From a virus (taxonomy: Duplodnaviria; Caudoviricetes): a stretch of 64,000 nucleotides of DNA. Position numbers and translations under genes: made by a program. The notes under the pieces were generated by a model, which saw only the letters and a list, made by a program, of their open reading frames with translations, did not search any database and had not been told where the DNA came from. This document shows, piece after piece, positions 39,441 through 42,315 of this stretch (its first letter is position 1; each line of letters opens with the position of its first letter). The stretch spans positions 160,001-224,000 of IMG/VR virus record IMGVR_UViG_2030936005_000025. One strand, written 5' to 3'.

Positions 39441-39740
39441 ATGTCACAAGTTGATTTGAACACCCCTGCTTTCGTTAGCTATTCAAAGGCTAACGAGTCT
39501 ATGCTTTCCTCATTGAAAAGCAAGAAATCTGTTAAGTTCGCCCGTAAAGGCTGGAACGGTAAACAACTCCACGTCCAGGTACACGGATCCATTCCAACCA
39601 GTCAGGTTGATTTGGAGAATGGCGAGAACGCCTACATCGAACCTTTCTTTGTTATCGTTAACAAAGCAAACAGCCGCGTGAACATCTGGGTACCATCGGT
39701 CTCAGATCTGCAAGCTGAAGACTGGTACGAAGTTCAGTAA
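39441..39740 (+). CDS. tad2: Tad2-like (DUF2829) anti-Thoeris sponge
   Basis: Signatures RKGWNGK and WVPSVSDLQAEDW; 99 aa; GGAGA RBS. Confidence 0.85.
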   Translation: MSQVDLNTPAFVSYSKANESMLSSLKSKKSVKFARKGWNGKQLHVQVHGSIPTSQVDLENGENAYIEPFFVIVNKANSRVNIWVPSVSDLQAEDWYEVQ

Positions 39741-40412: not shown

Positions 40413-40895
40413 ATGGATTCTATTGGGATGTTACTGTTGGCATTAATTGCAGGTGTCGGTATTGGTTCTGCGATCACTATTTTGATTCAAAAGCGTCGCG
40501 ACGCTGGAACGGTTGGTACCAATCCAGAACTGCACGCGTATATCACTTCTGCCGAGGCTAAACTTCAGGCTCAAGTTGATGAGCTTAAAACAAAACTCCT
40601 ACCTGCCGATACACAAGAGAAACTCAAAGGTATTGGCGATGGGTTACTGTCAACGATCAAAGATAAACTGCTTGACGATCTCTCTGGTTTGAGACTCAAT
40701 GGCGAATCACATCTTCAGCAAATCGAAGATATCGTGAAACGCATTGAAGGTCTGACTGAAGCTGAACTCGTCAAACTGCATCTGGAAAAAGAAACACCGC
40801 CCGCTGATCCAGTGTTGGCTGTCTCTCCTTCCGATCCACAGACAGTAGTCTCTTCTGAACCAGCGATTCCTGCTGATCAGAATAAAGTCGTTTAA
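40413..40895 (+). CDS. membrane-anchored coiled-coil protein
   Basis: N-terminal TM, helical body, P-rich tail. Confidence 0.75.
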   Translation: MDSIGMLLLALIAGVGIGSAITILIQKRRDAGTVGTNPELHAYITSAEAKLQAQVDELKTKLLPADTQEKLKGIGDGLLSTIKDKLLDDLSGLRLNGESHLQQIEDIVKRIEGLTEAELVKLHLEKETPPADPVLAVSPSDPQTVVSSEPAIPADQNKVV

Positions 40896-40901
40896 GTATT
40901 T

Positions 40902-40977
40902 GCTTCCATAGTTCAGTCGGCAGAACGGTCGCCTGTTAAGCGATATGTCGCAGGTTCGAGTCCTGCTGGAAGCGCCA
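40902..40977 (+). tRNA. tRNA-Asn(GTT)
   Basis: Acceptor GCTTCCA/TGGAAGC, anticodon loop CTGTTAA, T-loop TTCGAGT, encoded CCA. Confidence 0.93.
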
Positions 40978-41003: not shown

Positions 41004-41107
41004 GCGGTCGTGTCTTCAGAGGCACCGTAAATGTATGATAGTGGATGATTAGTTTCTACCACTGGATATCTTTACAATAGTTAGGTTAAATCCCTAAGGC
41101 CGCGCCA
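41004..41107 (+). ncRNA. tRNA-like RNA 1 with extended anticodon arm
   Basis: GCGGTC/GGCCGC acceptor plus G-CCA; T arm TTAGG-TTAAATC-CCTAA; D-like stem GTGTC/GGCAC; ~49-nt central arm. Confidence 0.6.
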
Positions 41108-41116
41108 GATTTATAT

Positions 41117-41250
41117 GAGGGTCGTGTCGTGGGACACAAGTTCAGTTATGCTCTAGCGATCTAAGATCGTGAACCCGTTAGCGGTGAAGATAGACAACTC
41201 TACTTCAACTGTACTGAATGATAAGCCGAGTTCGACTCTCGGGATCCTCT
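41117..41250 (+). ncRNA. tRNA-like RNA 2 with branched insertion in place of the anticodon loop
   Basis: GAGGGTC/GATCCTC acceptor; T arm CCGAG-TTCGACT-CTCGG; D-like stem GTGTC/GACAC; GTTCAGT/ACTGAAT encloses 66 nt; no encoded CCA. Confidence 0.65.
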
Positions 41251-41323
41251 ATCAACTTCATAATGTCATGAAGATCCGTACCTACCGTTTTGGTTTTTGG
41301 TACCCAATCCATGAGGAAGTAAT

Positions 41324-41647
41324 ATGTCAAATTTAGAAAAAGAGTTAGAATCAAGATATTTCGCTCGCATTCCAGATGTTGGTGAGAGAACTAACAATGA
41401 TCCAGCTTATTTGATGTCAAGTAATGATGTCCTTAAACTGATCAAAGCTATGTACCAGGATGGTTGTGACGCATCTGGCGACAGTCTTGAACCTGAACGT
41501 TTTAAACACCCCATCATTCTGGATCGATCATCGGGTAAAGAAGTTATCACCAGTTATATGGTCCAGGGGATTATCAAAGAAGCCACCGTAAATCACGGAT
41601 GGTCTGATGTTAAGCTTTATGGTAAACAGCTTCTGTTTATTAAGTAA
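41324..41647 (+). CDS. hypothetical protein
   Basis: ORF with a GAGGA RBS, followed by a terminator-like hairpin. Confidence 0.75.
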   Translation: MSNLEKELESRYFARIPDVGERTNNDPAYLMSSNDVLKLIKAMYQDGCDASGDSLEPERFKHPIILDRSSGKEVITSYMVQGIIKEATVNHGWSDVKLYGKQLLFIK

Positions 41648-41709
41648 AATTAAATGAAGAGAGAAGGGGTCGGTTGATCCTTTCTCTTTTTGTTTGTCTG
41701 GAGATATTT

Positions 41710-42060: not shown

Positions 42061-42315
42061 ATGAAAGTTGTGATTTACGGAAAACCTGCGTGCGTGTTCT
42101 GTACTCGTGCGAAGGACTTAGTTAAGGCCAAAGGAATCGATCATGAGTATGTCGATATCATCGAAACCGGCATGGGTCGTGAAGGCCTGGAAGAAATTGT
42201 GGGAGGTCCTGTTACGACCGTTCCTCAAATCTTTGTCGATAATGTTCATATTGGTGGTTATACTGATCTGGTATCTCACCTTGTCAAGTCTGACGAATCC
42301 GAAGTAAAGGTGTAA
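42061..42315 (+). CDS. glutaredoxin
   Basis: CVFC active site, TVPQIF, IGGY. Confidence 0.92.
   Translation: MKVVIYGKPACVFCTRAKDLVKAKGIDHEYVDIIETGMGREGLEEIVGGPVTTVPQIFVDNVHIGGYTDLVSHLVKSDESEVKV

Follow-up and report, generated by a model that had tools for sequence, protein, structure and literature searches.

Bacteriophage T4 produces two small RNAs, species 1 (rnaC) and species 2 (rnaD), which are stable in infected cells and whose function is unexplained (PMC3014915, PMC9697503); stable rnaC RNA has been seen on Northern blots (PMC9697503). The two genes (139 nt and 119 nt, respectively; NC_000866 70908-71171) lie within the T4 tRNA cluster, on the tRNA strand. Here, we describe two elements, A (104 nt) and B (134 nt), in a 64,000-nt stretch of phage DNA (hereafter, the window), which corresponds to bases 160001-224000 of a 264,203-bp virus record (IMGVR_UViG_2030936005_000025) rated complete. 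The source virus is a 264-kb jumbo phage, and the cultured phages nearest to it are jumbo phages, with genomes of 250-280 kb, that infect Enterobacterales and Shewanella. Like rnaC and rnaD, A and B are small RNAs in a phage tRNA cluster, on the tRNA strand, and they represent two new families, absent from Rfam, of this known but unexplained kind of phage RNA. On balance, we lean toward the view that they are independent, non-decoding stable RNAs in which a tRNA frame serves as a maturation and stability scaffold for a partner-binding cargo.

Structure of elements A and B

The cluster is headed by a tRNA-Asn gene, downstream of which lie A and B. The parts of A, as delimited from the sequence, the minimum-free-energy fold, a seven-phage alignment, and pair counts, are as follows.

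40902-40977, plus strand: tRNA-Asn(GTT), heading the RNA cluster (ARAGORN; Rfam RF00005, 71 bits)
41004-41107, plus strand: element A, a 104-nt tRNA-shaped RNA
41004-41009 with 41098-41103, plus strand: acceptor stem of A, GCGGUC with GGCCGC
41010-41025, plus strand: D-like hairpin of A, GUGUCU-UCAG-AGGCAC (6 bp and a tetraloop)
41027-41075, plus strand: long arm of A replacing the anticodon arm (49 nt; 17 pairs with internal loops)
41039-41064, plus strand: tip of the long arm, the presumed functional "cargo," UAGUGGAUGAUUAGUUUCUACCACUG, near-invariant
41076-41080, plus strand: junction AAUAG of A
41081-41097, plus strand: T arm of A, UUAGG-UUAAAUC-CCUAA
41104-41107, plus strand: 3' end of A, an unpaired G and an encoded CCA (seven-phage alignment)

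The D-like hairpin abuts the acceptor stem with no U8/N9 linker and has no GG in its loop; its sequence varies yet covaries, with compensatory changes at 4 of its 6 pairs (7 of 17 in the long arm and 3 of 5 in the T arm). The T loop, UUAAAUC, retains U54 and A58, with A instead of the C56 of tRNAs. The unpaired G at the 3' end is invariant in all seven phages, and CCA is encoded in four of the seven.

Element B, delimited from its sequence, its fold, and a four-phage alignment, has a tRNA-like frame around a branched insert.

41117-41250, plus strand: element B, a 134-nt tRNA-shaped RNA with a branched insert
41117-41123 with 41243-41249, plus strand: acceptor stem of B, GAGGGUC with GAUCCUC (7 bp)
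41124-41137, plus strand: D-like hairpin of B (helix 2), GUGUC-GUGG-GACAC (5 bp)
41140-41146 with 41213-41219, plus strand: anticodon-stem analogue of B, GUUCAGU/ACUGAAU (7 bp), enclosing the insert
41147-41212, plus strand: insert of B, 66 nt, with two hairpins (H1, 41148-41178; H2, 41181-41212)
41226-41242, plus strand: canonical T arm of B (helix 7), CCGAG-UUCGACU-CUCGG

The 4-nt loop GUGG of the D-like hairpin retains GG, the usual partner of the T loop. Position 73 is U (U41250) in all four phages, and no CCA is encoded. Three strings of the insert (UUAGCGGU, GACAACUC, and ACUGUACU) and the junction GAUAAG are invariant in the four phages. In both elements, the acceptor stem stacks on a T stem of 5 bp that closes a 7-nt T loop, a U lies immediately 5' of the first acceptor base, and a short hairpin is butted on the acceptor stem without a linker, which is an unusual habit.

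An earlier note on this DNA, made from the letters alone, had described two elements with acceptor stems and T arms after tRNA-Asn, and the sequence, the folds, and the covariation bear this out, although a 26-nt spacer separates A from the tRNA that it was said to follow directly. The encoded CCA of A and the 66-nt branched insert of B were likewise read correctly. The D-like stems had been given as 5 bp, which holds for B but not for A (6 bp), and the anticodon loop of A is indeed replaced, by an arm of 49 nt in all rather than by an extension of ~39 nt. The proposal of non-decoding tRNA mimics also agrees with the folds: neither element has the 5-bp anticodon stem with a 7-nt U33 loop of a canonical decoding tRNA, in place of which A carries a 17-pair arm, whose tip is larger than such a loop and unrelated to it, and B a two-hairpin junction.

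Comparison with known RNA classes

ARAGORN at default stringency, with or without introns, calls neither A nor B, and none of 4227 Rfam models matches them, even at E values up to 10; RF00005 itself gave no match to either element at E values up to 10 in a 501-nt search. We found no description of A or B in the literature. Several other identities were considered and rejected. For transfer-messenger RNA (tmRNA), ARAGORN -m finds no candidate, and the 3:70 pair is G-C in both elements, with no G3:U70. For Y RNA/YrlA, there is no Rfam match and no Ro/TROVE domain in the phage genome. A coding role for an 11-codon mini-open reading frame in A was likewise dismissed: it lacks a ribosome-binding site, the codons that vary do so in step with the stem covariation, and the final four undergo non-synonymous change. 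A loose likeness of the A tip to the "790 loop" of 16S rRNA (GGAUUAGAUACC) was dropped, several insertions being needed.

The earlier note had also offered intron-containing tRNAs, and both inserts do occupy the usual site of tRNA introns, the anticodon arm. We nevertheless regard it as barely credible that A and B are intron-containing or otherwise exotic decoding tRNAs that become functional once the insert is removed. There is no ARAGORN intron call and no Rfam match, to group I introns or anything else, at E values up to 10; the inserts are much shorter than self-splicing introns and are the best-conserved parts; and, by inspection, their removal leaves no U33-type 7-nt anticodon loop. By established tRNA geometry, moreover, a 17-pair arm cannot reach the decoding center.

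Covariation and conservation

The A alignment comprised seven phages, of which six carry a full-length copy (the window phage, Erwinia phage AH04, Pantoea phage Survivor, Shewanella phage SXP01, Klebsiella phage N1M2, and the 260,738-bp IMG/VR contig L052) and one, Edwardsiella phage pEt-SU, an arm-less copy. The B alignment comprised the window phage, L052, pEt-SU, and Survivor; it was fitted to the model and leans toward structure. With the four-helix fold of A, 96.7% of alignment cells are paired, compared with 39-47% after a shift of the 3' partners by 1-3 columns, and 18 of the 34 pairs, distributed across all four helices, are compensatory; no shuffle reached the observed values. For B, the paired fraction is 96.1% compared with 33-48% after sliding, in an alignment fitted to the model; compensatory changes occur at 15 of 45 pairs, with at least 1 in each of the seven helices, including helices 4-6 of the insert. 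Covariance models built for A (R1) and B (R2) score their respective orthologues at 100-122 and 115-166 bits. Stop codons interrupt all six reading frames of A in every full-length phage; for B, this holds in three of the four phages. The covariation, together with these stops, indicates that A and B are RNA genes and not decayed tRNAs.

Conservation within A is uneven. Mean pairwise identity is 68% in the acceptor stem, 60% in the D-like hairpin, 64% in the basal arm, and 66% in the T arm, whereas it reaches 93% in the arm tip (41039-41064) and the junction before the T arm. The cargo is therefore the constrained part of A, with the frame (60-68%) kept only as a shape.

These patterns bear on two other explanations. 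In the first, A and B are decaying tRNA pseudogenes left from a once larger tRNA cluster. Related phages hold other tRNAs at this spot (Ser, Cys, Tyr, and Arg), and the T loop and D region of A deviate from the tRNA consensus. We consider this explanation very improbable, and the covariation already contradicts it: every helix is maintained by compensatory changes, the parts that are not tRNA-like are the best conserved, and B is near-invariant beside coding DNA that has diverged by ~15%. Random decay of ordinary tRNAs in relatives, which the earlier note had named as the opposing outcome, is thus replaced by compensatory conservation. In the second, the 26 invariant nt of A (41039-41064) owe their conservation to a role at the DNA level, such as protein binding or recombination, and their location within an RNA gene is fortuitous. 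The segment is partly palindromic (GTGG...CCAC), and module borders in these clusters are recombination-prone; however, every copy forms the tip of an RNA helix that covaries and points the same way with respect to the tRNA frame, and the segment has no second occurrence in the genome, where the only match is to itself. A DNA site accordingly seems a very remote prospect.

Near-identity of B was visible in contigs of uncultured relatives, in which a block of 213 nt comprising B and the leader that follows it (41110-41322) differs at 2-4 positions. On the same contigs, the flanking open reading frame (ORF) differs at 26-28 of 172 nt (~15%). These relatives carry B without A or tRNA-Asn, in whose place there are 305 other letters. 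Judged from these comparisons, B appears to be under strong constraint or to spread easily. Four public sequencing runs with B were available as assembled contigs, in which ends and transcription are not visible; positions 41006-41107 are uncovered in the contigs of the four runs, which is no evidence that A is absent elsewhere.

Relationship between A and B

The earlier note had called the two elements paralogous on the strength of a string shared at the acceptor/D junction. This 9-mer, GGTCGTGTC, is present at 41006-41014 and 41120-41128, but it is specific to the window and is not conserved in A orthologues (e.g., GGTTATGTC, GGTTATATC, and GGTTGCGTC). Paralogy has this string as its only basis. 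Scores across the models are low, at 8-13 bits for B with R1 and 8-20 bits for A with R2, and ordinary tRNAs (T4 tRNA-Gly, 19.4 bits) and T4 rnaC (17 bits) score within this range. A and B share only a generic tRNA upper half and the linkerless hairpin habit, and the scores do not support a specific paralogy.

Distribution and modularity

In the window and the six related phages, the elements are located in tRNA clusters, on the same strand as the tRNAs, and all copies of A and B in GenBank records are unannotated. Cluster order differs in every phage (Asn-A-B, C-Ser-D-A-B, Cys-A-C, Tyr-C-Ashort-B, Asn-C-A-D-Arg, and Asn-Ser-C-B-A, where C and D are further RNA elements described below). This shuffling and the occurrence of B without A indicate that each element is a self-contained, exchangeable module. 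B of pEt-SU is 94% identical to that of the window; of the 5.3-kb island, B alone was matched by blastn in the pEt-SU record. The A copy of the same phage (L001 1476-1534) has cleanly lost the whole long arm, leaving a 59-nt mini-frame of acceptor stem, hairpin, and T arm that still scores 47.8 bits with R1; in the N1M2 copy, the arm is bounded by two CGCAG repeats, and the loss falls between them.

Further copies were sparse. The 14-mer GGATGATTAGTTTC occurs at >100 IMG/VR loci, but a longer pattern confirmed L052 alone, and the B pattern found L052 and the IMG copy of pEt-SU and nothing else in IMG/VR. Pattern scans of JGI metagenomes returned nothing or chance matches only, scans of the GTDB genome collection (185,579 prokaryotic genomes) returned no further copies, and E. 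coli genomes gave no match.

The same clusters hold other unannotated RNAs. Element C has a near-invariant core, GGGGUACAACAGGCCAGGG ... CCAUACCUGGGAUCCACUUCCCA, within a covarying outer stem; it has no Rfam match, and a further copy lies on an IMG/VR contig of 266,753 bp, within a tRNA-free stretch of 12.7 kb. The third RNA on a tRNA frame, element D, combines an acceptor stem, a UUCGAAU T arm, and a conserved cargo but lacks a D arm; 8 of its 29 predicted pairs are compensatory. Besides these jumbo phages, T4-like Klebsiella phages carry D (Marfa and dozens of further records), and in them it lies unannotated between tRNA-Leu and tRNA-Thr. Copies were found at the following positions of the compared loci.

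Element C: L001 1378-1466; L002 1612-1706; L003 1683-1790; L006 1362-1462; L052 1-96; L142 ~1805-1905
Element D: L005 1376-1468; L006 1589-1682; L052 191-284; L128 1237-1330; L143 3121-3218 (minus strand)

The "tRNA-Cys(GCA)" genes of AH04 and SXP01 (L002 1412-1497 and L005 1578-1664, respectively) span 86-87 nt and, with U73 and a long variable arm, combine a Cys anticodon with a body of the Tyr/Ser type; in pEt-SU, a tRNA-Tyr(GUA) of equal size occupies this position. SXP01 also contains a further stem-closed unannotated element (CUCUCUCU ... AGGGAGAGAG; L005 ~712-830) between tRNA-Asn and tRNA-Ser.

Genomic setting

The genes and signals around the RNA cluster are as follows.

39441-39740: Tad2-like anti-Thoeris gene (PF11195, E value 6.6e-15), 1.2 kb upstream of the RNA cluster, which sits in a plus-strand island
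40413-40895, plus strand: ORF upstream of tRNA-Asn, which starts 6 nt past its stop codon
41251-41323, plus strand: leader of the downstream ORF (72 nt), containing the hairpin CUUCAUAAUGUCAUGAAG
41324-41647, plus strand: ORF of 107 aa without a Pfam family, downstream of B on the same strand
41660-41697, plus strand: putative intrinsic terminator, a 12-bp stem (AGAGAAGGGGUC/GAUCCUUUCUCU) with a GGUU loop and a U run, read by eye
42061-42315: glutaredoxin gene, downstream of the cluster

ARAGORN and Rfam both find tRNA-Asn as the one tRNA of the window, and ARAGORN, introns allowed or not, detects no other anywhere in the 264,203-bp genome. A relative of the ORF at 40413-40895 was found in AH04 alone. 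The leader is conserved like B in the uncultured relatives, where another ORF comes next, and in SXP01 the same leader precedes a homologue of the 107-aa ORF, with B not there; it looks like a mobile leader module. The hairpin at 41660-41697 was not listed by a consensus terminator scan, and the same terminator-like hairpin closes the RNA cluster of AH04; it is likely to close the transcription unit as an intrinsic terminator. Outside the window, a tubulin-like ORF of 323 aa (24 bits; G000:C1:181269-181532, minus strand) fits a PhuZ-type spindle protein of nucleus-forming phages, and an ORF of 659 aa has an RNA_ligase-domain match below threshold (16.6 bits; G000:C1:75447-75878, minus strand).

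This setting bears on the possibility that A and B are processing punctuation only, i.e., tRNA-like folds that direct RNase P cuts in a polycistronic transcript, so that the upstream mRNA gains its 3' end and the downstream mRNA its 5' end, with the excised pieces functionless. The 6-nt distance between the upstream stop codon and tRNA-Asn is compatible with such a role, as is the position of B directly before an ORF or leader in three of the four phages (the window phage, L052, and pEt-SU), where the ORFs differ between phages; the cargo-less A frame of pEt-SU could serve as well. Nevertheless, a single tRNA already gives a cut site, Survivor has A and not an ORF after B, and punctuation leaves unexplained both the 93% identity of the A tip on a drifting frame and the invariant strings of the B insert. 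We therefore judge it improbable.

Candidate roles

In the scaffold reading that we favor, A and B would be transcribed with tRNA-Asn from a plus-strand unit running from the ORF at 40413-40895 to the terminator at ~41660-41697. Their acceptor stem and T arm, together with the GG/T-loop elbow in B, would make them substrates of the host tRNA maturation enzymes: RNase P would cut the 5' end, and trimming, with CCA addition where CCA is not encoded, would complete the 3' end. The tRNA frame would thus act as a built-in excision and stability scaffold. The module at the site of the anticodon arm (the invariant helix tip in A and the two-hairpin junction in B) would be the working part, and the most likely role of each module is to bind a particular protein or RNA partner during infection.

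Bacterial RNase P and the 3'-end enzymes recognize a helix, capped by a T loop, in which the acceptor and T stems are stacked. Recognition by tRNA enzymes fits with the U preceding the first acceptor base in both elements, with the invariant G and the CCA encoded by four of seven phages in A, and with the GG/UUCGA elbow loops in B. A search of the phage genome found no gene for a CCA-adding enzyme, RtcB, or Ro/TROVE; with no CCA-adding or RNA-repair enzymes encoded by the phage, maturation of A and B would rely on host enzymes.

Several observations weigh against this reading. The samples are small (seven phages for A and four for B), and the near-identity of B between phages could reflect recent transfer instead of constraint. 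The acceptor stem of A has 6 clear pairs (a 7th would be U·G), which gives a stacked helix of 11-12 bp, its T loop is without C56, and the A copy of Survivor has lost the T-loop shape; recognition of A by RNase P is, as a result, plausible rather than assured. The pEt-SU frame has been retained without its cargo, so the frame alone could have a use. The evidence from RNA libraries is limited to one contig of a seed metatranscriptome that spans B and that, being assembled, cannot separate RNA from DNA or show ends. Nor did partner searches single out a target: compared with the whole phage genome, the A tip gave a self-antisense match and otherwise noise-level complementarity scores, and seven conserved segments of A and B matched E. 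coli 16S, 23S, and 5S rRNA no better than shuffled queries.

A counter-defense role is a special case of the scaffold reading in which the frame is the bait. The tRNA upper half, possibly with its cargo, would titrate or block a host factor that reads the acceptor/T-arm half; toxins acting on the acceptor end, by modification or cleavage, are among the candidates. Phages are known to use tRNAs against defenses that target tRNAs (PMC10264068), the cluster lies 1.2 kb downstream of the Tad2-like gene, B has a complete elbow and acceptor stem, and pEt-SU keeps the A frame without cargo. The proximity to Tad2 is weak evidence, however, and conservation within A is highest in the cargo and lowest in the frame, which is the opposite of what a pure tRNA bait would predict. 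Moreover, since A and B have no anticodon loop, they cannot be substrates of PrrC, RloC, or other anticodon-loop cutters, and anticodon nucleases cannot be the target; titration could affect only factors that recognize the acceptor/T-arm half. We hold a decoy or inhibitor of this kind to be possible but unlikely.

A bolder proposal, to which we would give similarly modest credence, is that A, B, C, and D are RNA weapons of nucleus-forming jumbo phages, i.e., tRNA-framed aptamers, matured by the tRNA machinery of the host, whose invariant cargo would bind a specific host immune or translation factor and neutralize it. If true, no earlier case would exist of a natural aptamer on a tRNA scaffold with a defined anti-host target, and a job would be suggested for the T4 rnaC class.

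Returning to the scaffold reading, the conservation pattern of A marks a 26-nt candidate binding site, which makes the function of such RNAs experimentally approachable, and cultured carriers with tractable hosts are at hand (AH04, N1M2, pEt-SU, Survivor, and SXP01).

Comparison with known systems

An engineered "tRNA scaffold," in which the anticodon arm is swapped for an RNA of interest, was reportedly introduced by Ponchon and Dardel in 2007. Its principle is identical to that proposed here: the acceptor, T, and D parts are kept for processing and stability, and the cargo is placed at the anticodon stem. The engineered scaffold is man-made, however, whereas the arrangement in A and B is natural, conserved, and covarying, and the D region of A is a plain hairpin. 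The use of the scaffold for recombinant RNA is mentioned elsewhere (PMC10155629).

Among viral and cellular RNAs, the TMERs of murine gammaherpesvirus 68 consist of a tRNA-like element fused to pre-miRNA hairpins (PMC4337559), and mascRNA-type tRNA-like structures act as processing signals (PMC8457004). As in our reading of A and B, tRNA-like folds serve there as processing handles of non-coding RNAs and not in decoding; these systems are analogues only, being eukaryotic, based on polymerase III or RNase Z, and carrying the cargo after the tRNA-like part. Further tRNA mimics with a replaced anticodon arm are tmRNA (long helix P2) and YrlA (protein-binding helix). In YrlA, the free ends sit in the Ro-binding helix and not, as in A and B, in the acceptor stem.

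The closest described objects are T4 rnaC and rnaD, to which A and B are similar in design but without detected homology. Like A and B, rnaC is predicted to fold with an acceptor-like stem and a T arm, canonical in sequence (GGUUCGAAUCC), and to have no anticodon arm; an A-rich junction precedes the T arm in all three (UAAUAA in rnaC, GAUAAG in B, and AAUAG in A). In rnaC, long hairpins occupy the sites of the D and anticodon arms, whereas A and B have a short D-like hairpin, and the cargo of B, unlike that of rnaC, is a two-hairpin junction inside the anticodon-stem analogue. We detected no sequence or cargo homology to rnaC with R1 and R2, whose 17-bit scores come from the T arm and a makeshift acceptor pairing (no model built from rnaC was run). 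RnaD has no obvious T arm and is matched by neither model. The carriers also differ, rnaC and rnaD belonging to T4-type phages and A and B to jumbo phages of 250-280 kb. Because the copies of A and B are unannotated in GenBank and absent from Rfam, phage annotation misses this gene class. The tRNA-like stable RNAs of T4 have been known since the 1970s, and A and B show their design recurring in jumbo phages as unrelated, strongly conserved families.

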